Source of the DNA: an uncultured Hormoscilla sp.
Lineage (GTDB): Bacteria > Cyanobacteriota > Cyanobacteriia > Cyanobacteriales > Desertifilaceae
Assembly: GCA_963921275.4 (NCBI GenBank)
Contig: OZ001293.3
Span: forward strand, 6,528,001-6,592,000
Direction of reading: 5' to 3'
Length of the DNA stretch: 64,000 nucleotides
This document shows, one piece after another, positions 31,671-59,530 of the stretch. The notes under the pieces were generated by a model. It was not told where the DNA came from. It made no database searches and worked only from the letters and a program-made list of their open reading frames with translations. Position 1 is the first letter of the stretch. The number at the start of each line of letters is the position of its first letter. A program made the translations under genes and the position numbers.

Positions 31671-32597
31671 GGTCGGGGTCGAGCTGGGAATCACTCCCCA
31701 ACCCTCCAAGAGCGAAACCTGAAGAGCGACTGGAACCGCACACGGCTACTGGTTGGTAAGCTGTTGTCATCAGTAGGATTACTGGGGGTTACCCCCGTTG
31801 TCCCTTACCCTTTGAAATTTTACCCCTTATGGTCAATCCTATTGGACCGTTTAAGTACTGAGCTGCGGAAGGTTCGCGGAGGATAGTTCAGCAAACCATA
31901 CTCGCCGCTCTTTACTAACATCTTCCCCATTCTGCTTTCCGCTTTTCGTAAGGGCTCTGAACTTTACCTGGCTAAGATTTGAATCCAAAATTCGTACTTT
32001 CGGAATTTCTCCCTAGTTCTGTGACATTAAGGTTACTTTTCCCAAGGGTGTCTTACCATATCCGTCCTACGTCTGCATATCCACAGGCATTACCCTGGGC
32101 GTTAGCTTCTTAGGACATCCTTCTTCTTCGTGGCTTGCGCTTTACATCTAACTTGTCCAAATGGGGACAGCTCACGAGAGGTTACTTCGTTCCCTAGTAT
32201 CATTTCACGATGCTTTTAGGTTCCTACTATACCCCGGGAGTTCTTTGAGTACGTTATTAGCCAGAGGCAAGAGCTAATACTAACTACCATTTCCCTTTTT
32301 GGGCAAGCGCATAAGCCTTCTTCCGCTGGTTCTGGTTAACGAGGTTTACATAGGTTCGCTTGTTCTAACCATTAGCATCTTTCCTAGCGGCGTCACCGGC
32401 TTAGGCTGCCAGTTATCCTACATTTAAGTCCTCGGGAGGCACCACGGCGATGTGGCTCCGTAGCACCTCCGACCGGTAGTACCCTCGACCCCCGTACCTG
32501 GGGAAAGGGAATTTAACCCCCATGATAACCAGAGTTATCTGGCTGATAGAGCCAGACCCGACTTTCACCTACTGGCTTATGCCGGAACGAATCGCAC
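31671..32597 (-). mobile_element. ORF-less group II intron, copy B (927 nt)
   Basis: 5' GTGCGATTCG, 3' CTCGACCCCGACC, DV/DVI-like region; reverse complement of 58604-59530. Confidence 0.92.
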
Positions 32598-33180
32598 CAT
32601 CTCCCACCAGTCTATCGTTAGCGTCTGTTCCTTGACGAACATGTGCCAGGTATTTTAAATCTTCTTTGGTTGGCAAAATTGTTTCCAATAGGCTTTTGGG
32701 GACATCAATAACCGTCACTTTATCGTCATCGTGTTGTCCTGGTTCTAAGTTGAAGCTGGGAAACTTAGCCCCATAACTACTTGTATTTTTGAGTTGCCCG
32801 AGGGTAACAATCTGAGGCGTCGGCTTTTCGTCCTCGTCGAAGAGAAGCAAAGCCAACCAAGGAATGTCCCTGTCCTCGCTAGAACTGTCGATCGCTCTTT
32901 CCCAAGGTAAGGTACTGCGGTTGAAAATAACATGGGGAAAGACGTTAGAGTGTTCCCCCAAACTCCCTGGCGGTGGGAAAACCCCATGGATGTCTTGGGG
33001 ATTTAGAGCGAAACGTTCTCCGGCGACATGAAATGTTTTCTCTCCCGTTGTAAAGGGAGCTTGACCTTGTATCTTGCTACTTTCAATAGTTTGAGTAACG
33101 GTAATCTTATATTCCCCATCTCTCAGTGCCGGTTGATGGTACTGGATGAATTCAACCTTAATAGGAGCTTGAGTAGTCAT
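32598..33180 (-). pseudogene. N-terminal half of a large uncharacterised protein
   Basis: MTTQAPIKVEFIQYHQPALRDGEY..TLPWER..PWLALLLF..LAHVR; continues at 59531. Confidence 0.8.
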
Positions 33181-33268
33181 TGTAATTTTTGTCCTCGTTG
33201 CCAAAAAATTATCAAGCGATGCCCGAGGGGTTTTCGCCATGCGTCCCGAGGGCATCGTTGATTTTTGA

Positions 33269-34985
33269 TTATGCCTTTACTTGCGGGGCGACTAAAAAAT
33301 CAGCCGCTACCTCCCTATTCAGATCCACATCTTTGCTGGGTTCAAATCCTAAACTTTGCAATAAACTATCTCGACTGGAGTTCTGCACCAACGTATTGCG
33401 AATGCGATTTCTCAGTCCCTCCTCGTCGAGAGTGCTGGCTTGAAAAGGGGTTTGATTTTCCCAGCCATAACCAGTGGGAGCCGATTCCGGTTCGTATTGC
33501 AAATTGCGGCGGTTAACGGCATGAGTTTGACCCGGCGCTGGCGGTCTTCCGGGTTTTATTTCAAATCCCGATAGGGCATTTTCTATAAATTTCGTTCCGT
33601 TCAGATCGGGACTCAGGGATTTGCCCCACAGCCCTGCTGGCACCTTCTTCAAGATGGGGATATACTTAAAGTCGTCATCTTTAACAGGCGGCCCATCTTT
33701 TTTAGTTATCTTAATCCGGTGCTTGGTTGTTAAGTCTCCATCACTGACTTCCATTGAGCCAATGCCGAAGGCGGTGTTAGCTTGAACATGGCTGCCATCT
33801 GTCTTTGTTATCAAGATTGGGGATTCTCCAGTAGAGACTACCTTGTAAGCCTGTTTCGAGGGCACGATCGCATTCGTCACCAGGGATAAGTGCTTGGGAT
33901 TGATGACTCCCAGATCCGATTCGTTGTCGCCAATTTTCCGCACCAAGCCATCTTTAAAGGCAATAGTACATACCTTGTCGTCTTCCGGCAAGAAGGAATT
34001 TTTGAAGGTGCCCCAAGAAATTGGTTGGGGCTTTCGGGACGAACTGTCTCCGAAACTGACGTGAACTGAAACAATCCAGATATGGATGGTCGCCGTACCG
34101 CCAAATTCCGGTCCCCAGATATGTAGGTCTGCCCCCAACTCCACCGTAATGTGATGGGTGCCAAAGAAGTGAAAGGTGTAAGATGCGCCGATGTCGATAT
34201 AGATCCGGGCGTCGTAGTGATAGGGCTTCCAGGCAATTAAAAAGTCTGCCCCCACCTTGAACCATGCCTTGAGGGCACCGCTGTGATAGGTGGCGTCTAA
34301 ATGTCCTCCGGCCATGAAGGCATGAGAACATAGAGCAAAATAGGCATCTCCTTTGATGGTAATGTGACTGTCAACTCTCCAGTTAAATCCCAGCCTGGGA
34401 ACTTGGGGATAGTGGCTGGGTACCTGGAAACTGGGATGGTAGCCTCCCAGGGTGGTGACGAAATCTCCTCCGTGTTCTCCAGAGAACCAACAATAAAAGG
34501 CAAACCCTCCCGTGAGGTGACAGTTTCTCGACAAGAGATAGGAGGCGGAGGTCAGTTGGGCCCGCACTCCCAAAAAGCCTTCATCGGGAATAAAGCTGAC
34601 CTTCAAGACCATCTGGACTTCCGCGATAGGGGTAACGGTTTCTCCTTCCTCTGGCGTGGGCAAGATCGCCGTAGATAAACCGAGAATATCTAACTCAAAG
34701 CGGTTGCCGAAGGAAGCGGTCAGCAGGACGAAGGAGTCAACTAGCTTGAAGGAGTTGAACTTGATGCCGACGGCCAGGAAATATTCTCCCACTGCCGGAG
34801 AGATGTATTTGGCGATTTTGTCCAGTTCGGCAGCCAGGTTGCCAGTATCGCCCGTATTGTTGACTGCTTCTTCCACGAGGGGAAACTGAGCGACTTTCTC
34901 AATGGGCGGGACTCGCAAGTTGCGGTTGTAGCCGAAGCCCCCCGCCAAGCCGGTGATGAAGAAGAAGGAGGGGCCCTTCGGTGAT
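33269..34985 (-). pseudogene. 5'-truncated DUF6603-like large protein
   Basis: GPSFFITGLAGGFGYNR, TLGGYHP, VPRLGFNW; no natural start; family name from recall. Confidence 0.6.
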
Positions 34986-35007
34986 GCCCAAGATGAAAGT
35001 AAAATTT

Positions 35008-35433
35008 GGGTGTGGTCAAAACCCGTTGGTGAGGGATCCCCCCCAGCCCCCGGATCCCCCCTAACCCCCCGCTACATTGGGGGGGACCGCTTAAAAAAGG
35101 GGGACATTCACTCCCCCTCCCTTTCAGAAGCTATACTTTACTCACATATTTCTTAACATTCTGTGGCCACTATGGGGGGTGAAACCCTGATTACTTCGTA
35201 AGTCATTCTCAATAAATTCAATAATTTATCAAGAAAGAGGTCGGGATTTTTGTCAACCCCGTTGAGGATACTAAGTCTCAGAATCTTTGTACCATAAGGG
35301 TTTTAAGGTTGTCAAGAATTATGCGAGTAATGGTAAGCTTTCGGAAGGGGGCTGGGCGGGGATCCCAAGTGTGCAATTACCCACCCCTGGAGATAAAATT
35401 GCTCTAGTTTATCAACTACTTTTGACCACACCC
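35008..35433. mobile_element. MITE-like element with a nested inverted-repeat element at ~35128-35341
   Basis: 14-bp perfect TIR GGGTGTGGTCAAAA / TTTTGACCACACCC; no TSD. Confidence 0.65.
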
Positions 35434-35830
35434 GCTCGAAGGTGACATTACCAGACAGAGCGAGCCGCTAAGCAACTGGCGAAGCTAAAGCCTGAGCGGG
35501 TTCTGGTTTGAGTAGTTCTGTTAACAATGAGGCGGGCCGATCGCCATAGGGCCAGGCAAAGGCATGGCGGAAAGACGCTTCCTGACAGGCTTCCAACTGC
35601 TCGAAATCTATCACGTCCAGGGTTAATAGGTTTTCGTACTCAAAGGGCAAACGGACGTTGTGTAACCCGGCGTTATCGGTGCAAATGGCAATGTCTACGC
35701 CAGCGTCAAACAGCGATCGAAGACGATCTTGAGTTGATGCAAATCTTCGAGAGTGCCAGTTTTCAGGTAAGTGGTGGGACAGACTTCCAGACATTGACCC
35801 CGTCTAGCTACTTGAGTTAATAATTCTGGA

Positions 35831-37584
<1,754 letters not shown>

Positions 37585-38566
37585 TATCGCAGGGGAATTT
37601 GAATCCCGTGACCGATGCGCATATGTAATGGTAATAGTTCCCGATAGCAGCCATCGGCAGTCTCGTATATATGTCCGGTGGTGTTGAGACCGAGCGCTCG
37701 GGCATACTCGTACAACCGGACAAACTCATCCAGGCGATCGGCATAGCGAGCATCTCCGCCGGCCAGGTCGATGGCGCAGACATACCCTGGCTTTTGGGCC
37801 GCCAGATCCACGATCGCCCGGTTCACCTCATAAGGCAACCGGGAGTGCATGCAGAGAATTTGACTGGCGATCGTCGGACAATCTCTAACCTGAGTGGCAA
37901 TACCGACAATTTCCACTATCTCTGCCATTAAGTCCAGTCTCTGCTCGGTGCTTAAATGGGCAGACGTCCGCCAGTAGGGAGTGTAGCGCAGCTCCAAATA
38001 GGCCAAATTTTCAAAGACGTAGGCACCGCGTGTCGGCCGGTAGATAAAATACGGTAATGTTTCGGCAGTTTGAACGCTTTCTACTAGGGTATGCGGTTGC
38101 AGATACTCATCCAGGGTATTGCGAGGGCGGGTGTAAAATTCTTCGAATGCTGGATGTTCCGGGAACTGCTGGGCCAGAGGGGAACTGGCGCGATGAAAAT
38201 ATCGCGCGTTGGATGCGGGGGAACGACCGAAACCCCCCAGATGGCGGTGCGGTTCAGCATATAAAGCCATGACTAAATCCTCTCGAGTCGGGAGTCTCCA
38301 GGTTGGGACTGGGAACGGTGATGGGAAGGACGCTTCAGGGGAAGCGATGTTTAATCTAGGATGTCATTAATCTCCTCTGCTGTATCTTGATCGCCGATGC
38401 GGTTGCTGTCTCGGTAGAGGTTGCAGAAAAAGGGGAACTCATAATGTTATACTTTCGGAGATCCCACTCTGCCTCTTGTGGGTGAGAAAGGGGAGTGAGG
38501 CCAGGAGGCTTCGCCGGAGGTGACCAGGGAGAATGGTGTAAATGCTATTGAGATCATTGTTGTGTG

Positions 38567-39563
38567 GTGCGACTCGTTTCGGCCTAACCTGTACAAACAC
38601 GGAAAAGCCGAGCCAAAATTGGACTGAATGTTTAGAACCAAAACTAATCATAATCAGGCTCAATATGGTAACTCTGGTCATCATGGGGGTTAAATTCCCT
38701 CTCCCCAGGTGTGGGGGTGACACCGGTCCTTAGTGCTGCGGAGTGACATCACCGTGGTGCGGAGCAAGGACTTAAATGTAGGATAGCTGACAGCCCAAAG
38801 TCGGCAACTCCGCTAGGAAAGATGCTCATGGTTAGGAAAACGAATCTGTGAAAGCCTCGTTATGTGTAACCAGCGGAAGAAGGCTTACACGCTGGCCTAA
38901 AAAGGAAATGGTAGCTAGTATTGGCTGTTGCATATGGCCAACATCACACTCAAAGTAGCTCCCGGGGTAAAGCAGGGACCTAAAAACATCGTGAAATGAT
39001 ACCAGGGAACGAAGTAACTCCACGTGTGCTGTCCATAACTACTCGACTATCGACCGGTGGTCAGGAGATAGGGACCAGTTAGATGATAAGCGTAAGCCAT
39101 GTGGAGAGAGATGGCCCAAGAAGCAAAGGACAGGGGTAACTCCTTGTATAAGTGGTGCAGGAATGTACCGGCAGACGTGGGTCGGATATAGTTGGAAATC
39201 TTGGGTGGAAGTATCCCTAATACGTACCAAAAATCAGGAGAAATCCTAGATTGTAATATGGACTAAAACTCTAGCCGGGTAAAACTTGAAAAGTCCCCTA
39301 ATGACGAGACAGGGGCAATGTTAGCAAAGAGCGGTATAAGTGGTTTCCTGGATACCCCCCGCGAACCTTCCGGAGCTAGATACGAAACAGTCCTATCGAC
39401 TACCATAAAGGGGAAAAACTGCATAAGAAGAGGGACAAAGGGAGCAATCCCCAGTAATCCTGCCAATGACAAGGTCCAACTAACCAGTAGCCGTGTGCGA
39501 TGAAAACCGCATGCACGGTTCGAAAGGGAGGGTTGGGAAGCGATTCCCAGCTCGACCCCTAAT
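38567..39563 (+). mobile_element. ORF-less group II intron E (997 nt)
   Basis: GTGCGACTCG; DV AGCCGTGTGCGATGAAAACCGCATGCACGGTT; ends CGACCCCTAAT; empty site TGTGTG|TAGAGAT near 39730. Confidence 0.93.
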
Positions 39564-39789
39564 TAGAGATTTATATCATTTTTGTGGCGGCAGGTTTGAA
39601 CCTGCCGATTTTCCCAGAAAGTTGACGCAGGGGGGGCTCGGGGGCTATGATGGTAGGTTGTGTGGCTGGTGAGGCGAGTGACTCTTGGCTAGGGAGATTG
39701 GTGTAAATGCTATCGAGATCGTTGTTGTGTGTAGAGATTCACATTATTCTTGTGGCGGCAGATTTGAACCTGCCGATTTTCCCAGAAGG

Positions 39790-39818
39790 TTGACACAGGG
39801 GCGCTCGGGGGCTATGAT
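39790..39818 (+). promoter_or_regulatory. Sigma70-type promoter for purA; diverged duplicate at 39622-39651
   Basis: TTGACA-N17-TATGAT, 33 nt upstream of the TTG start. Confidence 0.75.
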
Positions 39819-39848
39819 GGTAGGTTGTGTGGCTGGTGAGGCGAGTGA

Positions 39849-41189
<1,341 letters not shown>

Positions 41190-41213
41190 GAGGTGAAAAG
41201 ATAGCAGCGGAAG

Positions 41214-41807: not shown

Positions 41808-41905
41808 TGGAGAATGGAGAATGTAAAATGGAGAATGTAAAATGGAAAATGGGGCAATTATCAATTAACAATTGCTCAAAATTCTCAATTAGCGGTAAAA
41901 AGTAA

Positions 41906-44050: not shown

Positions 44051-44150
44051 GGTTGAGTGAAAGGGCGATCGGATACCTGAATGGAGATCGCCCCTAATTT
44101 CCTGTTGACAAAACCTAGGGTTATGTTATGATAATAGCAAAGGAGTTGAG

Positions 44151-44977
44151 ATGATGACTGTAACAAAGGAAATACCAACTAAGAGCATTGACCAGGGGAG
44201 CGCGTCAAACTTCACGACCACTTTGAAAAGGATTCTGGAACTCTTAGACTTAGAAGCAGAGGATGATTACTGGATTTTGAAACCAACTGAATATGCAAGA
44301 CTTTCAGCAATACAGTTGGTTGTCGATGCCTATGAGATAATGGGAAGCGACTTCCCAAAAGGTTCTAATTTCTAAGATGAGCAAGGCGGTATTTTCCTAA
44401 CTTGGAAAAAGCGAGATACTCAGGATCAAATTATGCTATTATGCCCGGCCAAGCCTGAGAAGCAAGCTTTCATTTATCGCCAGAAAAACAAAGAAGCTGC
44501 TGTTGATTATCAAGTATCGGCTGTAAGATTAGTTTATTGGCTAGAGTGGTTGAAAAAAGCATGACAGAAAAATCTTTTACGTCGGAGTTTGAATCATTGT
44601 CTGGATAGCGCCATTGTCTACCGGGCATTACTGCTCAGGTCAATAGTCAGAATTGCTAGTGCTTGTTGTTCTCTGGCAGAATGTGCTGCCCGCTTCCGAA
44701 AATGCTATGGTATAGCTAATCTGGAGGTGGATCGCATTCGCGAGTTAGGTTTAGATGTAGTGCCAGACTCTCCATCCCATGCTCAGATTATAGCATTTCT
44801 CGAAATTATGAGGTACAGCCGCCAGTGATGAAAACCAGTGATGGCAATGCTTTCACTGTACCTCACCTTATTGAAAAATGCTATATCGGCTTGCCAAATC
44901 TTGAGGATGATGCCCGAAGGGCTCTGGAACTTGCAGATTTGTTGGCGCAGCAGTCTCTCCTAGTTTGGTAACCATGA
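44151..44977 (+). pseudogene. Two-gene module, copy 1 (both genes broken)
   Basis: Aligns with 45061-45862; TTGACA-N16-TATGAT at 44105-44132; AAGGAG RBS. Confidence 0.75.
44791..44883. mobile_element. 93-bp MITE with TA duplication
   Basis: Imperfect 28-bp TIR TAGCATTT..TGAGGTACAG; removal restores CAG ATT ATC GGC. Confidence 0.85.
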
Positions 44978-45060
44978 CCTTTATCCACAGAAGGCAGATC
45001 GCCCTAATCTCCTGTTGAAAAAAGCTAGAGTTATGTTATGATAATAGTAAAGGAGTTGAG

Positions 45061-45474
45061 ATGATGAAAGAAACAAAGAAAGTACAAACTAAGACCATAG
45101 ACACGGGTGGTGCGTCAAACTTCACGACCACCTTGAAAAGTATTCTGAAACTTTTAGACTTGGAAGCATCCGATGATTACAGGATTCTGAAACCAACTGA
45201 ATATGCTTTCAAGACAGCAATGCAGTTGGTTGTCGATGCCTATGAGGTAATGGAAAGCGACTTCCCAAAAGGTTCAGCTTCTACAGAAGATCGAGGGGGT
45301 ATTAAAATAACTTGGAAAAACCGAGAAACAAGACGATTAGTCCGCCTGTTTTGTCCATGTAATTCTGAGCAACCAGTTGATATTTATCACGATAGTAGTG
45401 ATGAGTATAATGTAGAGGATGTCTATTCAGTGTCAACATTAGTTCATCGGTTAGAGTGGTTTAATGCTTCATGA
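45061..45474 (+). CDS. Hypothetical protein, first gene of module copy 2
   Basis: 137 aa intact; stop overlaps the next ATG. Confidence 0.7.
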   Translation: MMKETKKVQTKTIDTGGASNFTTTLKSILKLLDLEASDDYRILKPTEYAFKTAMQLVVDAYEVMESDFPKGSASTEDRGGIKITWKNRETRRLVRLFCPCNSEQPVDIYHDSSDEYNVEDVYSVSTLVHRLEWFNAS

Positions 45475-45862
45475 CAGAACACTATTATAATAGTGGGTCA
45501 GAGTTGGAACCATTACCTGATAGCGCCATTGTCTACACTTCGTAAGTGGTGGATAGATTCGGAGACATATGAAGTCACAGATGATGCCTACTTTTTGCGT
45601 AAAAATAAAAACGAATCAGGTCTTTCTGTCAGGATTGCTAGCGCTTGCTCTCCATCAGAATGTGCTGCCAGATTCAGAAATTGTTATGGAGTTGCTAGTC
45701 TCCAGGTAGGTTTCATTCGTGAATTGGGTTTAGATGTAGTGCCTGACTCCCCATCTCATGTTCAGATTATTAGGTCTACCTTATCGTGAAGATGACCGTA
45801 ATAATGCCGATCGGCTTGCCCGTTTGTTGGCAGAACAGTCTCGCCTCGTTTGACAACCATGA
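45471..45862 (+). pseudogene. Second gene of module copy 2, frameshifted
   Basis: AYFLRK..ESGLSV..GVASLQVGFIRELGLDVVPDSPSHVQI. Confidence 0.65.
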
Positions 45863-46170
45863 CTTTTATTTACAGAAGGCCGATCGCCCGTAATCTCCTG
45901 TTGAAAAAAAATAGAGCTGTGTGATGATAATAATTTAGCTGACGCAATGCAACCCAGAACCTCGCGACAAGAGTTGATGCATTCATTTTCTAGGTTCAAC
46001 CCCGAAACTTCTCCCGAAACCACGTTGACAGGTTCAACCTGCTAACGTTGCTTTTGAGCGATCTCGACTGTGGCTCGATAATGAGGCAGAACCTCCGAAG
46101 TCGTTTCCAGTCTCTGGCTGGAAACGAGGGTAACCTGCGCGATCGCACGGCTAAAGCGCTTTAGCGCTTA

Positions 46171-46912: not shown

Positions 46913-47009
46913 ATGTCAGGTGGGCGATACCCAGCCTACATTTGGAGCATAAAAACTACCTCCCCTACCGAAATAAATATTAAGGAGGTATCATTAAGGA
47001 GGTATCACA

Positions 47010-48379: not shown

Positions 48380-50254
48380 CTACTGCGATAAATTAGAAGA
48401 GGAATTATCCCCCGGTAGTGGTAGACTCTCGCGCAGCCGCTTAAACCCTTTAGGGTCCATCTGCGACCAGGACAGCAACCCCACAGCAGTCACTATCAAA
48501 AATATTGCCAGCAACCCACAGACCACCATTACCCTTTTCTTCATCCCCTGTCGAGATGGAGGGCCCAGGGGACCCACCGGTGATTCGGGATCGGCGATCA
48601 CAGCTTGCTGAGGGGAAAAGTCCGGATCCTGATCGCTCGTTAAACCAGCATTGACAGTCCCGATAGTGACTGACTGCTGGGAGAGGTCTGACGAGACGCG
48701 GCAGCGGACCAGTACCACGGAAGTATTATCATGACCATTCTTGCGATTAGCCAAATTAATCCAAGCCTGGACCGCCTCGTCCAGAGATCTATTCTCATCA
48801 AACATCATGCCGACGCAATCAGTCCAAGATTGCTCAATACAGTCCCGATCGCTCAAACCATCAGAACAGAGCAACAGCACCCCATCTTTTGCAAAGATCA
48901 ACCGCTGCACGTTGGGTTCGATGGATTCGCCGTCTCGCGTCCCCAAAGCTTGGGTTAACGATCCTCCATCCGGCTCCCGTAGCGCTTGCCAGTAAGTCGC
49001 ACGTCCTCCGGACACTTCCCTGACAGAAACATCATCATCCACCGTCAATAGCTGACAATAGTCCTGAGTAATCCAATAGGCGCGACTATCTCCCACATGG
49101 GCTAGGTAAAGTTCGTGACTATTACCGAAGTCAGAGCCATCAGCAGTCGATACCTTCTGGGGGATCTGGAGAGCCATCACCAAAGTAGTAGCCATGCGCT
49201 GTCGAGATTCTCGCCCTTGCTCGTCATTCTGGGCCGCAATCAAGTTATTCACCACCCGGATCGCAGATGATAAATGCTCCATGCAGACGTAAGGCATTAC
49301 CAGTTCCGTTTGTTGGGCCAACTTCTGTAGCAACCCTTGCACCTGTAAACATAGGGCTCGCACCGCCATCTGGCTAGCTACCTCTCCCCCTTCATGACCG
49401 CCCACCCCATCGCAGACGATCGCCAGTCCGGGAATTATATCGTCATCAGACACGGTGCTGTTCGGTGGAAACACCGTCTGGGGAAAGCAACTGTCCTCGT
49501 TGTGGAGCCGCCTGGGACCTGTCTCCGAACCTCCAGCAAACTCTAACTGCAAAGGCTGCTGGGCCGCCACCTCCAGTAATAGCTGATTCAGCGCTGGGTC
49601 GATCGCCTCTGTCGTCGCCTCCGCAGCATACATCTGCTGACAGATATCTTGCAATTCATTGCTCACAGAGTTGCTTTGAGTAATCCAACTCCACCAGCAA
49701 CTGGCCAAATCCCCCAAAGATGGGATCTTTGGTATCTCTTGGCTCCCTGACACCCGATCTGCATGCAGTTCCAGCAGCCAAACCCGCCCACCTTGAACCC
49801 GGATATTCTCTGGTACCAGGAGACTTGATGCCACCCCCTCTGCCGATAAAGGATTCCACAGCTGAGTCATTTGCCAGAGCCAATAAACCTGAAGCACAGT
49901 CCTTGCTCCCAACCAAGCCTCTGCTATTCCAGGGTACAAACCTGCAGATGCTGTTACCGGCACATTCTCCAGCAACAGGATATTAGTCACTTCCCGACGG
50001 TTTTCCAGTCGAGCATATCCATACACCTCTGGCACATGCCGTCGGTAGGGAAATAAACGTAAATAAGGTATAATTTCCCCAAGGCTGTCCAACTCCACTG
50101 GTAGATCGGGCTTGGATTCCGGTAAGGTATCCAGCCAGATTTGCGGAGCCTCCACCCGGTATCTGGAAGCCACCAACTTACCTACTCTCACTTGGGCCGC
50201 CGTTCCACCCACTGCCCAGAGATAGCGCCCAATCAGCCGCTCTTGACTGCTCAT
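48380..50254 (-). CDS. PP2C-family protein phosphatase
   Basis: HNED, VCDGVGGH, AHVGDSRAY, LCSDGLSD, GHDNTS. Confidence 0.93.
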   Translation of the reverse strand: MSSQERLIGRYLWAVGGTAAQVRVGKLVASRYRVEAPQIWLDTLPESKPDLPVELDSLGEIIPYLRLFPYRRHVPEVYGYARLENRREVTNILLLENVPVTASAGLYPGIAEAWLGARTVLQVYWLWQMTQLWNPLSAEGVASSLLVPENIRVQGGRVWLLELHADRVSGSQEIPKIPSLGDLASCWWSWITQSNSVSNELQDICQQMYAAEATTEAIDPALNQLLLEVAAQQPLQLEFAGGSETGPRRLHNEDSCFPQTVFPPNSTVSDDDIIPGLAIVCDGVGGHEGGEVASQMAVRALCLQVQGLLQKLAQQTELVMPYVCMEHLSSAIRVVNNLIAAQNDEQGRESRQRMATTLVMALQIPQKVSTADGSDFGNSHELYLAHVGDSRAYWITQDYCQLLTVDDDVSVREVSGGRATYWQALREPDGGSLTQALGTRDGESIEPNVQRLIFAKDGVLLLCSDGLSDRDCIEQSWTDCVGMMFDENRSLDEAVQAWINLANRKNGHDNTSVVLVRCRVSSDLSQQSVTIGTVNAGLTSDQDPDFSPQQAVIADPESPVGPLGPPSRQGMKKRVMVVCGLLAIFLIVTAVGLLSWSQMDPKGFKRLRESLPLPGDNSSSNLSQ

Positions 50255-50381
50255 GAATTAAAACGATTTTTCCGACTATCTTAAAGATAGGTTAATCATT
50301 CCACACTCAATCGGAACCTTAGATTAAACTATTAATTGTACTACCCCTCAACACAGTCAATGCTCAGCTAGAAGGTGCTCT

Positions 50382-50816
50382 ATGGCTCTTACTCCTACTA
50401 TATTTTGGTTACTGGCATTTATTGTCCTGTGCGTGATGGAAGTGGTCACCCCAACCGCCTTTGTGGAATTGATGATGGGACTCAGCGCTTTGATGGTGGC
50501 GGGAGTTGCGGTGATTTTTCCCCAACTGGCCGTTGGCCTGCAGATTGCCCTGTGGATGGGATTGTCACTTAGTCTGGTATTTGGCTCCCGTCGCTTCCTG
50601 CCCACCCGCAAAGTTTACGCCCTTGCCGACGCCACCGAGGCCGAAACCTTGACCGAGATCTTGCCCGGTCAGGCGGGCCGCGTCCTCTATGAAGGCAATT
50701 CCTGGCGAGCTAAGTGTGATGATAGCATCAGTGCGATCGCTTCCGACCAGAAGGTTTACGTCCTCCGCCGGGAAGGCAATACCCTGATTGTCATGCCCGA
50801 AAATCTCTGGCATTGA
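50382..50816 (+). CDS. NfeD-family membrane protein
   Basis: TM N-terminus, GRVLYEGNSWRA, REGNTLIV; upstream of an SPFH gene. Confidence 0.9.
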   Translation: MALTPTIFWLLAFIVLCVMEVVTPTAFVELMMGLSALMVAGVAVIFPQLAVGLQIALWMGLSLSLVFGSRRFLPTRKVYALADATEAETLTEILPGQAGRVLYEGNSWRAKCDDSISAIASDQKVYVLRREGNTLIVMPENLWH

Positions 50817-50850
50817 AAATTGAAAATTGAAAATTGAAAATTGAAAATTG
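50812..50850. repeat. Heptamer tandem repeat (ATTGAAA)x5+
   Basis: Direct reading; similar heptamer runs near 41806 and 43680. Confidence 0.9.
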
Positions 50851-51056
50851 GGAATATTCAGATAGGATCGCGAAAATTTTGAGTTTTGCCCAGATAACAG
50901 AATAAGGGCGATCGCCCAAAATAGGGCCAGTTCTCATTATACCAACTGATTGTCAAGTTTTGTAACTTTCAGTTGTGGATGGTAACAAAAGGCGGGGTGG
51001 GGCTTGAGGAATAAATAGAAGCAGATAAGAAATTAATCGAAAAGGAGATTCACGCT

Positions 51057-52064
51057 ATGCCACCAGAATTAATAGCACTGCTTGCGGCTCTCGGAGTGGG
51101 CGGGTATGTCTTAAAAAGCACTGTCAAGATTATCAATCAAGGGGACCAAGCTTTAGTGGAAGCCTTGGGGAAATACAACGGCAAAAAACTCGAACCGGGA
51201 CTTAATTTCCTGGTGCCAGTGTACCATAACGTGGTTTATCGAGATACCATCCGGGAAAAAGTTCTAGACGTGCCGCCCCAACAATGTATCACCCGCGACA
51301 ATGTCTCGATCAGCGTTGATGCGGTGGTCTACTGGCGGATTATGGACTTGGAGAAAGCCTACTACAAGGTGGAAAAACTCCGGGATGCGATGGTCAACTT
51401 GGTGCTGACTCAAATTCGGGCAGAAATGGGTAAACTGGAACTGGATCAAACCTTTACGGCCCGATCGGAAGTGAATGAAGTGCTGCTGCGGGAATTGGAT
51501 ATTGCTACTGATCCTTGGGGGGTGAAGGTGACGCGGGTGGAACTGCGGGACATCGTTCCTTCTAAAGCAGTGCAGGAGTCGATGGAATTGCAGATGTCAG
51601 CGGAACGGAAAAAACGGGCAGCAATTCTGACCTCGGAAGGGGAACGAGAAGCAGCAGTTAACAGTGCTAAAGGTAAAGCAGAGGCACAAGTTCTGGATGC
51701 GGAAGCACGTCAGAAAGCAGCAATTCTAGAGGCCGAGGCGCAACAGAAGGCAACGGTGCTCAAAGCACAAGCAGAACGTCAGCAGGCAGTCCTAAAGGCG
51801 GAAGGGACAGCGGAAGCGCTGAAAATTGTGGCTCAAACCCTTAAAGAAGACCCCAAGGCGAAGGAGTCGCTGCAATTTTTACTAGCGCAGAATTATCTGG
51901 AGATGGGGATGAAGATTGGCAGCAGCGACAGCAGTAAGGTGATGTTTATGGACCCCCGCAGCATTCCGGCTACCTTGGAAGGCATGCGATCGATCGTCGG
52001 AGAGGGCAGCAAATCTGGAGAAATTAGCGTTCCAGATTTTGCACCCGATCTGTTCAAGAGTTAA
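51057..52064 (+). CDS. SPFH/stomatin-family protein
   Basis: [32 protein letters not shown]. Confidence 0.95.
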
Positions 52065-52065
52065 G

Positions 52066-52473
52066 TTAATCGCCTCCTGCCAGCTGGCACTGGTTACAGA
52101 GTCCGAAAAACTCCAGGGTGTGATAGTAAACTTTGAAATTGTGAGATGCTTGTAACTCTGTTTCCAGCTGGTGGACGGGACATGAATCTAAGGGAATGGA
52201 TTCACCGCAGTGCAGACAGGTGATATGATGCTGGTCTTGATGGACCGAGCCATAAAGGGATTCGCCGTTAGCCAAAGTCCGCACTTGTAGGCAGCCTTCT
52301 TGTTTGAGAGCTTCCAGGGCGCGGTAAACTGTTGCTAAACCGATGTTCTGGTTGCGGTTCCGCAGTTCGACGTAAATGTCTTGGGCAGAGAGTGATCGCT
52401 GGTTTGTTTGCAGCAGTTGCAAAATCCGCTCTTGACCCCGGGTGCGTTTGGCTTTCATCGACCTGTCTGGCAA
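52066..52473 (-). CDS. Fur-family regulator (Zur-like)
   Basis: GLATVYRAL, HHITCLHCG, FFGLCNQC. Confidence 0.92.
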   Translation of the reverse strand: MPDRSMKAKRTRGQERILQLLQTNQRSLSAQDIYVELRNRNQNIGLATVYRALEALKQEGCLQVRTLANGESLYGSVHQDQHHITCLHCGESIPLDSCPVHQLETELQASHNFKVYYHTLEFFGLCNQCQLAGGD

Positions 52474-52485
52474 ATCCTAATGCGA

Positions 52486-53292
52486 TCATACATCGGGATC
52501 GATCCCTAACTCTTGTAACCGGGCAGCTAAACTTTCGGCCCGAGCGCGTTCCTGTTGGGCCCGAGCGCGTTCCTGTTGGGCCCGAGCGCGTTCCTGTTGG
52601 GCCCGAGCGCGTTCCTGTTGGGCTTGTGTAAGGGCTGCTTCTTCTGGTAGCGGGACAAGGTTGCTTTCGCGGTCATAAAAGCGCAACCATATTGCAGGCT
52701 CTCGCAGTATTATTCCAGACCAGGTTCCCAGCCACAACCCTAATGTCTCAGACCACAGCCAACCCCGTGCATCTGGGATCAAGGGCTGATATCGTCCATA
52801 ATCATCCAAATGCCACCCCTGTAAGGAATTGGGGTTAAAGGGGTCGAACACGAAGTAATCTGAGGTTCTCCATTGTTGCTCGTAAATATCCTTTTTAATT
52901 CCAGTATCTATGTGGGCCGTCGTTGGCGACATCAGTTCTATAATCACATCAGGCAAACGACCCCCTTCTTCCCAGGCTACCCAGGCTTTTCTGGATTTAT
53001 TAGTATCTACACCGAGCACGACAAAGAAATCTGGACCTCGGAAGTCTTCGTTGCGGATCTGACGGTTACTGTCATATATGAACATATTGCCGCCGACGAA
53101 GAAGTCATTGCGGTGAGCCCAAGCTTCATGCACTGACCGGATCAGAACGTTCATGGCAGTGCGGTGACGGTTAGTTTCCAATGGTTCTCCATCGTCAAAT
53201 ATCAGATCGCTAGTCGATAGGGGTACTTCCTCCCAGTCCGATGCCACTGCGAGGGTCTGGGATAATTTCTCTTGTTTTGTCTCCACTGACAT
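52486..53292 (-). CDS. Uma2-family endonuclease with QQERARA x4 tail
   Basis: FRGPDFFVV, PDVIIELMS, WLRFYD; 21-bp repeat at ~52537-52620. Confidence 0.9.
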   Translation of the reverse strand: MSVETKQEKLSQTLAVASDWEEVPLSTSDLIFDDGEPLETNRHRTAMNVLIRSVHEAWAHRNDFFVGGNMFIYDSNRQIRNEDFRGPDFFVVLGVDTNKSRKAWVAWEEGGRLPDVIIELMSPTTAHIDTGIKKDIYEQQWRTSDYFVFDPFNPNSLQGWHLDDYGRYQPLIPDARGWLWSETLGLWLGTWSGIILREPAIWLRFYDRESNLVPLPEEAALTQAQQERARAQQERARAQQERARAQQERARAESLAARLQELGIDPDV

Positions 53293-53418
53293 GGCATCAT
53301 CTCCCTAGTAGGGGTTATTCCCTCCTTAATTTGGTAATTCGTCAGACTTGTGTCTTGCCATAATATATGATATCATCAAACCGATAATCTGACAAGGAAT
53401 TGCTGACAAGGAATTGCT

Positions 53419-53700
53419 GTGACTGTAAAATATCACGCTCGGATCTATGTTACTATGCGACCTTCAGTGTTAGACCCGGCTGGGGTGGCCGTGTCCTCTG
53501 GGTTGAAGCAACTGGGCTATGATGGCGTCGAACAGGTGCGCATTGGTAAGTTTATCTCACTACAGTTGACTGCTGCCGATGAAGAGTCCGCTAAGGTACA
53601 GCTCTCTGAGATGTGCGATCGCCTCTTAGCAAACCCAGTAATTGAAGATTACTGCTTTGAGATGACCGAGTTATCCGCTACTGCTCATATGGCTGGATGA
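53419..53700 (+). CDS. purS: FGAM synthase subunit PurS
   Basis: RPSVLDPAG, VRIGK, LLANPVIE. Confidence 0.95.
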   Translation: MTVKYHARIYVTMRPSVLDPAGVAVSSGLKQLGYDGVEQVRIGKFISLQLTAADEESAKVQLSEMCDRLLANPVIEDYCFEMTELSATAHMAG

Positions 53701-53736
53701 TTTGTTTATTTTAACAAAAAATACTAACCTTAGGCT

Positions 53737-54462
53737 ATGAAATTTGGGATAGTGGTGTTTCCAGGGTCAAATTGCGATTGCGACGTCGAATACGTTACCC
53801 GCGACTTACTCAAGCAACCAACTCGCATGGTTTGGCATCAAGAAACGGATATTTCCGATCTCGATGTGGTAGTTATCCCTGGCGGTTTTAGCTATGGAGA
53901 TTATTTGCGCTGCGGCGCGATCGCCCGTTTCTCCTCGGTGATGGCCAAGGTTGTGGCACATGCAGAGCAAGGTAAACTGGTATTAGGCATCTGTAACGGC
54001 TTCCAGATCTTAACAGAAGTGGGATTGTTGCCCGGGGCTCTGGTCAGAAATCAGGACTTGCATTTTATCTGCGATCGGGTGTCTATGCGGGTCGAAAATA
54101 GCCACATTTCTTGGACTGGGGCCTACTCAGAAGGGGAAGTTATTACTTTACCCATTGCCCACGGCGAAGGTAGATACTATGCTGATGATGAGACGATCGC
54201 ATCATTAGAAAAAAACTCACAAGTGCTATTTCGCTACGAGGGAGAAAATCCCAATGGTTCCTTGAATAACATTGCTGGTATTTGTAACCAACAAGGGAAT
54301 GTTTTAGGAATGATGCCCCATCCAGAAAGAGCATCAGACCCCATGTTAGGCGCTACGGATGGGATAAAATTGTTTAAGGGATTGCTCAGTCGCGAACTAA
54401 TACAGAACTTAAACAGCAACTGTAGGTTGGGTGGTTGCAATACTTCTCGGTTAAGGATATAG
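53737..54462 (+). CDS. purQ: FGAM synthase glutaminase subunit
   Basis: FPGSNC, GGFSYGDYLR, GICNGFQ, MPHPER. Confidence 0.97.
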   Translation: MKFGIVVFPGSNCDCDVEYVTRDLLKQPTRMVWHQETDISDLDVVVIPGGFSYGDYLRCGAIARFSSVMAKVVAHAEQGKLVLGICNGFQILTEVGLLPGALVRNQDLHFICDRVSMRVENSHISWTGAYSEGEVITLPIAHGEGRYYADDETIASLEKNSQVLFRYEGENPNGSLNNIAGICNQQGNVLGMMPHPERASDPMLGATDGIKLFKGLLSRELIQNLNSNCRLGGCNTSRLRI

Positions 54463-54831
54463 GTTGTCATTGCGAGGGGGGAACACAGTACGTAGCGATT
54501 AACTTTTGCTTTATGAGTTAACCCCCCCCGAAGCAATCTCCTCGACGACCCATGAGATTGCTAGCCCTCCGGAGCTTGTTGCGAGGCACGAAGCAATCTA
54601 CCGCTGTGCTAAGGGGGGGATCCTGGTGGCGATCCCTAAATTATCGGTTTGGGTTTCCTCCCTCGCTCCGGACAAATTATTAACCGAGAAGTATTGTGGG
54701 TGGTTGGGTTTCGTGCCTCTACCCAACCTACGATGTTAATATCAATTGACGAGGAAGGTAAGCACTAAAGTGCTTACTACGAACGAGGAAGGTAAGCACT
54801 AAAGTGCTTACTACGAACGAGGAACGAACAA

Positions 54832-56922
54832 TTAAGAGTGAGGTTCGCCAAAGAGCACCATTGAGCAGGTGATTTCCTTAATTACTTGAACAGTTACGTC
54901 ACTAACGGCTAATCCCCCGGCAGTACGATAGCGTAGAGAACGCAAAATTACCATTTCAGAGGATTGAGAGAACTTGATAATTACCTGGGCCACATCGTCG
55001 TGGCGAACAATTTTAATTTGAGACTTAACCTGGGGCATGGCCTGAGAGAGGATTGCTTCTAACTGCGGCTTAAAGGCAAGGGTTTCCTCTTTGGGCGTGC
55101 GCCGATCGCACACGTGCAAAAATGTTATTTCCGCCTGGTTCGTATCGGCGAACAGTTGAGCAAACCGCACCGTTCGCACTGCCTGTGGGGTTAAGTTTTT
55201 GACAGGCACCAATATTTGATGGATATTTATCGGCTCGTCCAGCAGCCGCATCACGGCTACCGGACAGTGGGACGCGGAGAAGACACTATCAATCAGATTG
55301 CCTAGCAAGCGAGTCCGCAAGCCAAAGGTTTCGCCAGATCCCATGACAATTAAATTGGCATTTACTTCTCTGGCCGTGCGACAAATTCCTTGAGCTACAT
55401 TATGATCGATGCGAATTTTCGGGGACGCTTTGACCTTAAACTCTTGACTGACTGCGACTGCCCGATCAAGCAGCTTATTACTTTGCTTGATTGCCCCGCG
55501 CAACTTGGGGTCGTCCATGTGGAAGTGAGCTTTAGCAATAGATAGGGGTACGATCGCACCAGACTCGTGAAGAGCCAACAGGGCTGCCATCTCGATTAAA
55601 TACCTTTCTGTCAAGGGATTGTAGACTGGCACCACGACAGTAAACGGCTGTTCGGACTGGTCGGATGGTTTACTTTCCCACCAGATCGACCTGTTGCTAG
55701 TCTCGAGATCGGTTTCTTCTGAACTGTCACCAACAGGGTTTGGTAGGGGCAACCTACTGGCAAATTGTGCTGTAGTTACAGGACCCAGGATAGAAGTCAC
55801 CAGCATCAGGACAATGACAGCGTTAAACACTGGTTCGCTAATCAACCCGACCCGGAAAGCTGCTAAGGCCGCTGCTAAAGTAGCTGCTACCTGGGGCAAG
55901 GATAAGGACCACATGGTCAGCATCTCGTTCCAGCTGTAGCGAAACAGCAGCTTGGACACCAGGGCCGCCAGAAATTTACTTGCCAGCAACCCACCGACGA
56001 TCGCCAGGGTGAGGGGCAGACCGGAAGTGATGCTTTCCAGAAATGTCGGGATATCCAGCAGTAAACCCATACCTACGAAGAAGAAAGGGATAAACAGGGT
56101 ACTACCCACGAATTCCACTTTTTCTTCTACCGGACCATGACCGACCACGTCATTGACTGCTAGACCAGCTAGGAATGCGCCGACAATCTTATCTACATTA
56201 ATGATCTGTGCTCCCACTGAGGCCAGAAACACCGACAACAGCACGAACAAAAACTGGTTGCTTTCCTCATCCCCAGTGCGGCGGAAATATTCTTTCCCCG
56301 CCCAGCCAAGGCCAAACAAGACGATGGTCGAGTAGATAGCCAGGGCCCCTAACTGGATCGCTAGACTGGCGGGGGAGAACTCCCCTGCATGAATGGAAAC
56401 ACAAATCGCTAGTACCAGCAGGGCGGCGATATCTGTGAAAATGGTGGCTCCGATGGTGACGTTGACGGCTTCGTTGGCGGCCACGCCCAACCTAGTGACG
56501 ATCGGGTAACCTAAGAGGGTATGGGAAGCGATCAGGGAACCAATCAGGATCGAAGAATTCAAACCGAAGCCGAACATCTGCCCCACTACGGTGCCAAAAA
56601 TTAGGGGGATTAAGAACGTAGCAAGACCGAAGCCTAGGGAGCGATTTTTCTTTTTGCGGAACTCCTCCAGGTCAATTTCCAAGCCTGCGACGAACATCAG
56701 ATAAATCTTGCCTGCGTCCGATAGCAGCTTCATCATCTCTGATTTAGGTTCGAGAAACCCCAGGCCATCGGGACCGAGGACCACCCCTGCTACTAGCAGT
56801 CCCACTAATCCGGGCAGTCGCAGCTTCTCGAAGATCGGAGGTATGGTCAAGGTGACCAGCAGCAGGATGGTAAAGGCAACGATCGGGGTATCTGGGAGTA
56901 ATGCTAGTATCTGTTCCATCAA
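54832..56922 (-). CDS. Cation/H+ antiporter with C-terminal USP-like domains
   Basis: Multi-TM, FVAGLEID, GATIFTD, SHCPVAV. Confidence 0.92.
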   Translation of the reverse strand: MMEQILALLPDTPIVAFTILLLVTLTIPPIFEKLRLPGLVGLLVAGVVLGPDGLGFLEPKSEMMKLLSDAGKIYLMFVAGLEIDLEEFRKKKNRSLGFGLATFLIPLIFGTVVGQMFGFGLNSSILIGSLIASHTLLGYPIVTRLGVAANEAVNVTIGATIFTDIAALLVLAICVSIHAGEFSPASLAIQLGALAIYSTIVLFGLGWAGKEYFRRTGDEESNQFLFVLLSVFLASVGAQIINVDKIVGAFLAGLAVNDVVGHGPVEEKVEFVGSTLFIPFFFVGMGLLLDIPTFLESITSGLPLTLAIVGGLLASKFLAALVSKLLFRYSWNEMLTMWSLSLPQVAATLAAALAAFRVGLISEPVFNAVIVLMLVTSILGPVTTAQFASRLPLPNPVGDSSEETDLETSNRSIWWESKPSDQSEQPFTVVVPVYNPLTERYLIEMAALLALHESGAIVPLSIAKAHFHMDDPKLRGAIKQSNKLLDRAVAVSQEFKVKASPKIRIDHNVAQGICRTAREVNANLIVMGSGETFGLRTRLLGNLIDSVFSASHCPVAVMRLLDEPINIHQILVPVKNLTPQAVRTVRFAQLFADTNQAEITFLHVCDRRTPKEETLAFKPQLEAILSQAMPQVKSQIKIVRHDDVAQVIIKFSQSSEMVILRSLRYRTAGGLAVSDVTVQVIKEITCSMVLFGEPHS

Positions 56923-57029
56923 GGGTGAAAGGGCTAAGAATGCTTATCTGATGAACAGCTTAACGTCTTTAACTGACCCTTGCTGTGCTGAGTACCTCAA
57001 ATTATCAAACAAATCTTAAATCGAACCTA

Positions 57030-57141
57030 TAGCGAACCTAAATCATTTGTGTAAAAATTATGTGTGTATCAATGCTGAAACCTTTGCCTGGTAATGATTT
57101 AAGCAAAAACATCCTATTGCACAAGTCATTTATGCTTGCTA
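57030..57141. mobile_element. 112-bp TA-flanked MITE
   Basis: Imperfect TIR TAGCGAACCTAAATCATTTGTG / CACAAGTCATTTATGCTTGCTA. Confidence 0.65.
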
Positions 57142-57145
57142 TATA

Positions 57146-58157
57146 ACTCAAGTTGCGACCTATAAAAATTGGATACAAAAAGCTATGATAAAGAGAATTA
57201 TTTTCAACTCTAATCCCTTAGATGTAACAGCATGAATTGACTTGGGAAACAAATTTGTGATTCGACTAAAACAGGTTTCAACTTGTTTTCTTGTTACTTT
57301 TTGTATATATTCAAAACAAGAATATTCTTTTCTTTTTGAGTTCTTTTTTCGCAAAGGTTTTAACATTATACTTGACGACTCTTTTAGTAAATCCTCTAAT
57401 TGATAATCATTATAAGCTTTATCTCCATAAACTATTGAATTTGATGGTAAGTCAAAGCCAAAAGATTGCAAAACTTTAACATCATTATAACTACCAGGAT
57501 CTAGATAAAATTCTATTGGCTTTCCATTTTTGTTTACCAACATATGAACTCTTAATCCATAAAAATAACGTTTTTTACTGGCAATATACCCTCGATATTC
57601 TTCCTTGTTATAAATTTGGCATCTATCAATCCTAATATTATCACATACTGGCACCGGGAAACTATTAAGAATATATTCTTGACCCGGATTGAGCTCTTTA
57701 AATGTTTGAGCTATAACTTGGAAGAAAAACATCCAAATTGGTTCGTCAATATTGTGTAATCGACGATTGAACCTACTTTTACTTAACAGATTTTTTATAT
57801 ACTTGTGTTCGACCATAAATTGACAAGAGCGATCGTGGTGTTCTCCGAAAAAATATGCAGCAACTAATCCGACTGTCATCACTTCGGCATTGTTCATTTT
57901 TACTTGTGGATCTTCTTTTATATTTAACGCTTTTAGTAGCTCGTCACAAAGAACAAAAATTGTTGTAATCATATCTTCCATCATCTACATCCCCCAGCAA
58001 TTAACTATTATTTTAGTACATTATAACCTATAAACAGCCAACCCGCTGTATAGCACAAAAAAAATATAATTTTGTATCAAAAGCTACGAAATATCCCAAA
58101 TATCTGTAAAGTCTAAGTGGGTAATTCATATTTTTTTTAATAGGTCGCAACTTAGGT
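57146..58157 (-). mobile_element. IS982-family element, copy 2
   Basis: Same TIRs and length as copy 1; flanked by TATATA. Confidence 0.92.
57160..57984 (-). CDS. IS982 transposase with D-to-N at the first predicted catalytic Asp
   Basis: YILNSFP versus YILDSFP in copy 1. Confidence 0.85.
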   Translation of the reverse strand: MMEDMITTIFVLCDELLKALNIKEDPQVKMNNAEVMTVGLVAAYFFGEHHDRSCQFMVEHKYIKNLLSKSRFNRRLHNIDEPIWMFFFQVIAQTFKELNPGQEYILNSFPVPVCDNIRIDRCQIYNKEEYRGYIASKKRYFYGLRVHMLVNKNGKPIEFYLDPGSYNDVKVLQSFGFDLPSNSIVYGDKAYNDYQLEDLLKESSSIMLKPLRKKNSKRKEYSCFEYIQKVTRKQVETCFSRITNLFPKSIHAVTSKGLELKIILFIIAFCIQFL

Positions 58158-58311
58158 TATATAAGTAATTCTGGTCAGGGGATAAGTGAAGTCAGGCGAT
58201 CAATAGTTTGGGAGTTGATGTTATAGGAATGATTGCCTTCAATCTAGGGTTTTGTATAATTAGGAATTGTGTTGTGGTAGCCCGGAACTGAAATTAGAAG
58301 GAGAAGAACAG

Positions 58312-58603
58312 ATGAAAGCTTTGGTGCTCGATCGACCTGGAAGTCCGCAAACCTTGCGCTTGGCCCAAATGCCTGTGCCAGAAGCAGGGGCGGGAGAAGT
58401 ACGGGTGCAGGTGCATGCTGTAGGATTGAATCCAGTCGATTATAAGCTAGCAGCATCGGGTTCAGCCCGCTGGCAGTATCCGTTCATTCTGGGACTAGAT
58501 GTGGCAGGAGTTGTGAATGCTGTAGGTGCAGATGTCACCAAGGGGTGCTGGCGGTGTCGGCGGCTTTGCGGTTCAGCTAGCGTCACCGACTGGTTTAGAG
58601 GTG
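58312..58603 (+). pseudogene. N-terminal half of the MDR/quinone oxidoreductase gene, internally deleted
   Basis: MKALVL..GLNPVD..LGLDVAG jumps to GAGGVGGFAVQLA..GLEV in another frame. Confidence 0.88.
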
Positions 58604-59530
58604 GTGCGATTCGTTCCGGCATAAGCCAGTAGGTGAAAGTCGGGTCTGGCTCTATCAGCCAGATAACTCTGGTTATCATGGGGGTTAAATTCCCTTTCCC
58701 CAGGTACGGGGGTCGAGGGTACTACCGGTCGGAGGTGCTACGGAGCCACATCGCCGTGGTGCCTCCCGAGGACTTAAATGTAGGATAACTGGCAGCCTAA
58801 GCCGGTGACGCCGCTAGGAAAGATGCTAATGGTTAGAACAAGCGAACCTATGTAAACCTCGTTAACCAGAACCAGCGGAAGAAGGCTTATGCGCTTGCCC
58901 AAAAAGGGAAATGGTAGTTAGTATTAGCTCTTGCCTCTGGCTAATAACGTACTCAAAGAACTCCCGGGGTATAGTAGGAACCTAAAAGCATCGTGAAATG
59001 ATACTAGGGAACGAAGTAACCTCTCGTGAGCTGTCCCCATTTGGACAAGTTAGATGTAAAGCGCAAGCCACGAAGAAGAAGGATGTCCTAAGAAGCTAAC
59101 GCCCAGGGTAATGCCTGTGGATATGCAGACGTAGGACGGATATGGTAAGACACCCTTGGGAAAAGTAACCTTAATGTCACAGAACTAGGGAGAAATTCCG
59201 AAAGTACGAATTTTGGATTCAAATCTTAGCCAGGTAAAGTTCAGAGCCCTTACGAAAAGCGGAAAGCAGAATGGGGAAGATGTTAGTAAAGAGCGGCGAG
59301 TATGGTTTGCTGAACTATCCTCCGCGAACCTTCCGCAGCTCAGTACTTAAACGGTCCAATAGGATTGACCATAAGGGGTAAAATTTCAAAGGGTAAGGGA
59401 CAACGGGGGTAACCCCCAGTAATCCTACTGATGACAACAGCTTACCAACCAGTAGCCGTGTGCGGTTCCAGTCGCTCTTCAGGTTTCGCTCTTGGAGGGT
59501 TGGGGAGTGATTCCCAGCTCGACCCCGACC
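58604..59530 (+). mobile_element. ORF-less group II intron, copy A (927 nt)
   Basis: GTGCGATTCG..CTCGACCCCGACC; EBS1 TGCCTC (58932) vs GAGGTG; EBS2 AACCAG (58864) vs CTGGTT. Confidence 0.92.

Follow-up and report, generated by a model that had tools for sequence, protein, structure and literature searches.

A Hormoscilla lineage of group IIB introns lacking reading frames: matched guides, mispaired domain V and probable mobilisation in trans

A 64,000-nt stretch of the genome of an uncultured Hormoscilla sp. (GenBank assembly GCA_963921275.4, contig OZ001293.3, positions 6,528,001 to 6,592,000; hereafter the window) carries five introns, A to E, which are members of a population of about 350 group IIB introns lacking an open reading frame (ORF) in this genome. 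The structure and borders of these introns, the fit of their guides to their sites, their copy number, their nesting and the host genes that they split can be read directly from the DNA. It is quite probable that they belong to a genus-wide ORF-less lineage, with guides matching its sites, that retrohomes in trans by means of the reverse transcriptases (RTs) of distantly related ORF-bearing introns. Positions without a prefix follow the window numbering, and C1 denotes this genome's chromosome contig. An earlier note on this DNA had proposed a family of non-autonomous introns with individually reprogrammed target recognition; the nesting of D in C, the swapped flanks of A and B and the pairing faults within domain V in A, B and C go beyond its claims.

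All five introns (835-997 nt) begin with GTGCG. Intron A (32597 to 31671, minus strand) and intron B (58604-59530, plus strand; exon-binding sites EBS2 at 58864-58869 and EBS1 at 58932-58937) are each 927 nt long and align with zero differences, so that the five introns represent four sequences, as already noted. Intron C, on the plus strand, is the outer member of a twintron: its 5' part (35831-36288) comprises domains I-II and J2/3, its 3' part (37124-37584) domains III-VI, and its length without D totals 919 nt, the 3' end being fixed by C's own continuity around D. The guide set of C, with the EBS1 TCCAAA, occurs once in the genome. The inner intron D (36289-37123, plus strand, 835 nt) lies in sense inside C, directly 3' of a conserved AGATGTA junction; its guides are EBS2 at 36542-36547, EBS1 at 36610-36615 and EBS3 at 36650, and it belongs to a family of 72-75 copies. 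Intron E (38567-39563, plus strand, 997 nt), from a family of 8, is inserted in the first of two copies of a 168-bp sequence upstream of an ORF at 39852. Its borders are fixed because the second copy of the target region (39691-39858, plus strand), matched by 38526-38566 and 39564-39691 at 93%, is free of the intron.

The absence of an RT or maturase ORF was borne out both by the ORF list and by protein comparison. Apart from flanking ORFs that run in, no ORF of at least 90 aa was found within A-E, domain IV included, and the sense strands of 41 family representatives gave no match to RT proteins at E<=10. A motif in D (AGGAG..ATG AGA TGA), previously taken for the vestige of an ORF, was rejected as such: it recurs in 8 of the 31 families scored and sits on the predicted 3' strand of a domain IV stem. 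The expected fold into covarying domains was upheld by a consensus structure of 39 representatives, with 218 pairs, 106 of them showing two-sided changes, and 94% of cells paired, in an analysis that has no control for relatedness and predicts domains II-III only roughly. The single-sequence fold of D was not better than its shuffles (z -0.4). The pairings of subgroup IIB, those of EBS1, EBS2 and EBS3 with their intron-binding sites (IBS1-3) and delta-delta', are all present, although delta, a U in 38 of 40 groups with its A partner at D position 114, is nearly invariant and hence weak evidence. A conserved bulged adenosine of domain VI, the predicted branch point, lies 9 nt from the 3' end in 306/306 copies parsed with the end motif (4 of 310 were left out since the motif is missing), one base further from the end than in the RT-type introns of this genome. 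There was also a complementarity between an A/B-specific domain I stretch, GGGGGTCGAG (B 58705-58717; A 32484-32496), and the 3' strand of domain VI, CTCGACCCC, which, judged by pairing, could compete with the branch helix.

A profile built from A-E gave 603 matches, every one on C1. Full-length uninterrupted copies number 310, in 41 clusters at 97% identity (139, 72, 16, 12, 8, 7, 7, 5, 4, 3, then smaller), the A/B family accounting for 16, and 351 ORF-less copies have an intact 5' half. The ORF-less scaffold occupies 4.9% of C1, and all group II intron sequence 7.7%. Identical copies make up 61 of 139 in the largest cluster and 20 of 72 in the second; such large identical families point to a very recent spread. 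In contigs of three public short-read runs, which come from one study that is possibly the source of the assembly, depth across the introns was roughly ten to a hundred times that of the flanks, and no intron-free allele joint was found among the contigs listed. Removing the intron restores 80 or more open codons to each side of the joint in 69/306 copies; with the 3' end displaced by one base this falls to 4 and 5 copies, and random joins give 3.9%. Since restoration collapses on a one-base shift, the 3' end is fixed and insertion is precise. Among the changes between copies of the two largest families C>T/G>A predominated; tandem CC>TT/GG>AA changes were seen several times, and changes of three bases (GAA>TCC, GGA>TTC) a few times.

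With G-U pairs included, EBS1 pairs with its own site at 5/6 positions in A, C and D and at 6/6 in B and E, the guide differing in each sequence as had been reported: TGCCTC in A and B, TCCAAA in C, TGCACT in D and TGCATA in E. EBS2 pairs at 5/6 in A, C and D and, as previously described, poorly in E (3/6); in B the full 6/6 is reached only with a 1-nt shift, the usual register giving 4/6. In each of the five introns the first base of the 3' exon pairs with EBS3, which maps to D position 362 and pairs in 88% of 40 groups against 45% expected. The 351 copies carry 54 EBS1 types and 58 combined EBS1 and EBS2 types. Across 54 groups with 6-nt guides, Watson-Crick pairs to the own site averaged 4.50 for EBS1 and 3.84 for EBS2, far above 2000 shuffles (mean 1.70, maximum 2.22, and mean 1.74, maximum 2.24, respectively), and the guide loops thus covary with the flanks genome-wide. 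The idea of individual reprogramming holds in so far as 37 of the 58 guide sets occur once, but not copy by copy. Guides are constant within families, the exceptions being only 5 single-copy one-base variants and one deletion, so that per-copy reprogramming or templating of guides by the flanks was rejected; two guide sets are common to 143 and 75 copies, together 218/351. Few columns of domain I vary as much as those of EBS1 and EBS2, and in one pair of groups 8 of 11 guide positions differ against a background divergence of 4%. The recurrence of one EBS2 with different EBS1 suggests recombination; the scaffolds are mosaic.

Related RTs are present elsewhere in the genome: 93 RVT_1 matches and 69 5' ends of RT-type introns were counted. 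RT frames of at least 250 aa number 62, in 29 clusters, 28 of them 60-89% alike and one about 48%. Full-length frames end in an endonuclease-like domain, as read from motifs, and out of 69 RT-type introns 8 passed a strict test for intact RT plus endonuclease; examples of intact RTs lie at C1:3168096, 4097676, 5689045 and 6314083. In the PDB, a representative helper candidate matched best to 6ME0 chain C (E 3e-114), which we take to be the intron protein of Thermosynechococcus elongatus. Divergent RTs are few and either broken or reading YADG; one of them, at C1:1775380-1777200, is a 600-aa group II RT with YADG instead of YADD and an RNA type of its own. An RT lying within the ORF-less scaffold was found neither in this genome nor at the 30 RT loci examined in four congeners and the 29 scaffold loci from named genomes. 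The two classes have similar sites beyond the guides, with a purine at -15 in 54/67 RT-type sites and 50/58 ORF-less guide groups and C at -14 scarce in both (6/67 and 3/58). Because the bases after EBS2 are AA, unable to pair with a purine, recognition of -15/-14 by a protein, common to both classes, is suggested.

The population would then be propagated as follows. An intron carried on a host or read-through transcript would be bound, probably at its long conserved domain IV, by a CL-type RT/endonuclease from one of the about 8 intact ORF-bearing introns, which would also aid splicing. The RNA would reverse-splice into DNA where EBS1-3 pair, the protein reading -15/-14. Guide mutation, together with recombination reassorting EBS1 and EBS2, could give rise to new families, and recombination between near-identical copies could produce inversions such as the probable one between A and B. 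Overall, use in trans of the RT of distantly related introns appears likely from the sequences compared.

The introns frequently insert into one another: 61 of the 351 copies have intron sequence as their 5' flank. Eleven D-family copies lie at about position 240 of RT-type introns, and the largest family has 12 copies antisense at one site in RT genes, so that ORF-less introns repeatedly strike their likely helpers. One family targets the ORF-less scaffold itself, with 7 of its 9 copies at position 90. The RT-type family of C1:2406679-2409916 and related copies mostly carries a D-family intron at about 240, and several of these copies also an antisense largest-family copy in the RT gene; multiply nested stacks, which include a family aimed at position 90 of its own scaffold, occur at C1:1540259-1542145, 6223364-6226211 and 4580568-4584451. 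The 69 frame-restoring insertions divide into 38 sense and 31 antisense, and many of them are accordingly plain knock-outs, like the C/D twintron, which splits in antisense the adenosine deaminase gene (35468-38270, minus strand), the genome's only PF00962 match. The sole enolase match is interrupted in sense by a family member, and so is the sole G6PD match, which makes splicing in vivo of at least some members likely. The core-gene labels given to insertion sites are presumptive.

Hormoscilla are sponge symbionts; in keeping with this genus as the host, a protein encoded in the flanks matches one labelled Hormoscilla at 74%. Domain I matches were obtained in 4/4 genomes of the same genus, while the 56 other relatives gave only short matches, mostly to domains V-VI, and 400 sampled genomes of the phylum gave 0 matches at 1e-12. 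In a motif scan, 29/31 loci among the matches listed fell in Hormoscilla-titled records, possibly the same assemblies as the congener genomes. All four congeners hold both the ORF-less scaffold and RTs. An ORF-less intron of about 755 nt (loci L014, L016 and L077) has identical flanks in three congeners, which suggests an old lineage with a vertically kept insertion.

The closest parallel is the TeI3 (ORF-less) and TeI4 (ORF-bearing) IIB1 introns of T. elongatus, 28 introns in 6 families, for which mobilisation in trans by driver RTs has been demonstrated (Mohr, Ghanem, Lambowitz 2010, PMC2882425). Both systems have ORF-less families set by EBS1-3, twintrons and exon shuffling by recombination, and the purine preference at -15 resembles the selection of A-14/A-15 by TeI3c/4c (PMC2882425). 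Here, too, families with distinct guides at matching sites coexist with RT introns in one genome, but no close ORF-bearing parent was found in the loci checked, the ORF-less introns keep no ORF remnants, and the proposed mechanism, by analogy, would match that of TeI3/TeI4 minus descent from such a parent. The scale also differs, with about 420 introns and 54 EBS1 types compared to the 28 and 6 families of T. elongatus (PMC2882425). A CL-type expansion in a filamentous cyanobacterium is known from Arthrospira platensis, with 101 introns per genome (PMC8919778), and Arthrospira has been credited with at least 150 (PMC4649490); the count here is at least 2.8 times this highest published figure found. 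Trichodesmium erythraeum, like the present genome, has ORF-less introns in core genes (dnaN), there served by the RT of another intron, and nested introns in a protein gene (Tery_4732); its copies are few, however, whereas the C/D twintron lies antisense in its gene and both members are ORF-less (PMC12584367, PMC4649490). Bacterial ORF-less introns have been termed rare in a review (Zimmerly and Semper 2015, PMC4424553). The degenerate group II introns of organelles likewise are ORF-less with a mispaired domain V, but they are immobile and host-spliced (PMC4424553). A literature search covering journals outside subscription found no paper on Hormoscilla introns or on this lineage.

Domain V divides the population. 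In D and E it is canonical, with the AGC triad, a paired lower stem, a 2-nt bulge and a GNRA loop. In A and B (31716-31747, and 59454-59485 on the plus strand) the triad is kept, but 3/8 lower-stem pairs fail and UCCA replaces the GNRA loop; in C (about 37510-37540) the triad is also kept, the lower stem is mispaired and one base is missing. In a covariance-model check, suggested by the earlier note for the whole genome, only D (46.6 bits) and E (42.1) pass Rfam RF00029; C reaches 23.7 bits, A and B have no match, and the Rfam models of domains I-IV found nothing in 31000-40000. Pipelines of this kind therefore likely undercount the ORF-less lineage. The A/B-type 3' strand of domain V occurs 48 times in the genome. 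The 301 full-length copies that were classed comprise 33 + 16 mispaired and 252 canonical ones, the mispaired copies spanning 10 + 5 EBS1 types at 30 + 15 sites, with an EBS1 fit (of 6) of 5.30 and 5.33 compared to 5.26 in canonical copies. Sequencing error was rejected as the source, since short-read contigs, from the runs of the one study named above, carry the variant unchanged (for B at about 15 times single-copy depth in run X1), and a host-wide motif bias was rejected as no enrichment was seen. A compensating cis partner for the mispaired strand was not found in 53 aligned sequences, among which lineage is a confounder. Other breaks at the same pairs, in multi-copy families whose flanks differ, occur in 15, 25 and 58 copies in congeners G002, G003 and G004 and in none in this genome and G001; a broader pattern had 40, 57 and 102 matches, respectively. 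Comparable changes of several bases turn up one at a time in recent copies, so mutation can supply such mispairings.

Several observations weigh against mobilisation by distantly related RTs. Domain I of ORF-less and RT-bearing introns is 60-61% identical, against 46-47% for shuffled sequence (one RT intron compared), and domain VI and the 3' end differ; recognition by an RT of an RNA about 60% like its own is putative, and the earlier proposal of an RNA-guided, non-autonomous population with its RT elsewhere is supported with the qualification that the helper is no close parent. TeI3 and TeI4 are 85-100% alike with ORF remnants kept, compared with about 60% and no remnant here, and TeI4f, with domain V/VI mispairing, is hardly mobile in T. 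elongatus (PMC2882425), although the mispaired families here are multi-copy. The preference at -15 is slight, and proteins of the CL type in general, a lost one included, might show it. Against a working domain V in the mispaired families, that of B has a folding energy of -7.3 kcal/mol (z 0.14), compared to -16.8 (z -3.2) for D, with a competing hairpin in context; all insertions in recognised core genes carry a canonical domain V, and none of the 11 sense insertions with a mispaired one lies in a recognised core gene. Splicing, mobility and the identity of the helper are what we infer from these data. Alternatively, the true helper might have been encoded by a cognate intron on the scaffold of the copies, one that bore an ORF and has since been lost or broken or is missing from the assembly; the copies would then be recent relics. 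This would account for the low likeness to the abundant RT introns, a similar domain VI and 3' end occur at C1:5175413, the broken divergent RT intron at C1:5172000-5175500 may mark that lineage, and the genome is 96.7% complete. We nevertheless hold it to be rather unlikely, since the RT is missing from the scaffold in all the loci surveyed here and in relatives, large identical families imply very recent spread and four congeners hold the scaffold together with RTs.

With trans mobilisation by the resident RTs as the preferred reading, the mispairing of domain V in A, B and C most likely is a tolerated defect, which the protein would prop up and which would lower splicing without stopping the spread. 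For the mispaired families only, a possible, if doubtful, account is that they inserted with a normal domain V and then died catalytically, the defect spreading by gene conversion. The hairpin of B, no more stable than its shuffles and with its competitor in context, the mosaic scaffolds and the lack of mispaired copies in recognised core genes would fit; the mispaired 3' strand is, however, shared by every one of the 16 full-length copies in the A/B family, of which 12 differ from one another by 0-3 changes, the mispairing extends over 10 + 5 EBS1 types, and mispairings of other kinds recur in three congeners, again in multi-copy families. The same recurrence, an independent loss of pairing at the same base pairs, could also be read as a sign that domain V of another intron RNA supplies catalysis in trans in a U6-like division of labour; hundreds of canonical donors exist in the genome and no compensating cis partner was found. 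We regard this as very improbable, because the triad, the upper stem and domain VI are kept, as expected for function in cis, and the trans partner would need to travel in the homing particle. Equally improbable is the combined picture of a genus-wide protein-less lineage living on a non-cognate RT in the manner of short interspersed elements (SINEs) and starting to abandon its own catalytic centre, with the broken-domain V families homing via a trans domain V. If true, those families would present, in living bacteria, a model of the transition from group II introns to U6 small nuclear RNA.

Behind the origin of spliceosomal introns stands the question of how group II introns became numerous, shed their proteins and ended up sharing a splicing machine. 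In this genome the process is displayed at about 15 times the scale of T. elongatus, with split core genes, rearrangement and nested introns that disable their own helpers. Two points become open to direct test, namely whether a single RT also serves RNAs with only 60% likeness to its own and whether introns can still move when their domain V is mispaired, and the 54 natural guide variants on one scaffold offer a map for retargeting a compact IIB intron.

Introns A and B, inverted and identical, have swapped gene flanks. The 5' half of a conserved hypothetical protein gene (32598-33255, minus strand; residues 1-195 of 615-641-aa homologues) adjoins the 5' end of A, and its 3' half (59531-60417, plus strand; residues 197-483, frameshifted further on) adjoins the 3' end of B; the gene neighbours DUF6603, and congener G004 has it as an intact 647-codon frame. 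Likewise, the internally deleted 5' piece (ADH_N) of an alcohol-dehydrogenase-like oxidoreductase (58312-58603, plus strand) adjoins B, and a frameshifted piece at 31240-31670 (minus strand), presumably its 3' part as judged by motifs, adjoins A. The simplest reading is that recombination between A and B flipped the 26-kb segment 32598-58603, which is likely inverted. An assembly error at the 927-nt repeat, with no real inversion, would give the same picture: contigs of the three short-read runs match the local sequence but stop 27-28 nt inside the introns, and short reads are thus unable to orient the segment. Such an error is unlikely, however, as the 6.88-Mb chromosome is assembled in a single contig free of N although such repeats number in the hundreds, which suggests long reads, and for T. 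elongatus the shuffling of exons between intron copies has been reported. A genome-wide count of flank swaps gave 123 cross-joins with paralogue support, nearly all from repeated genes, and no count is claimed. Inverted D-family copies at C1:2333408 and 2476528, 143 kb apart, have a cross-join for which a paralogue gives a 77% match; located with 3' ends as they stood before correction, this pair is a second candidate inversion.

Elsewhere in the window, a small two-gene module (44079-45932) occurs as two tandem copies about 76-83% alike, one of them decayed. Two inverted 1-kb elements (15473-16491 and 57144-58162) are 99.4% identical and carry a transposase-like 274-aa ORF, which we take to be of IS982 type; contig depth over them is about 70-150 times that of the flanks, which points to a very large family.

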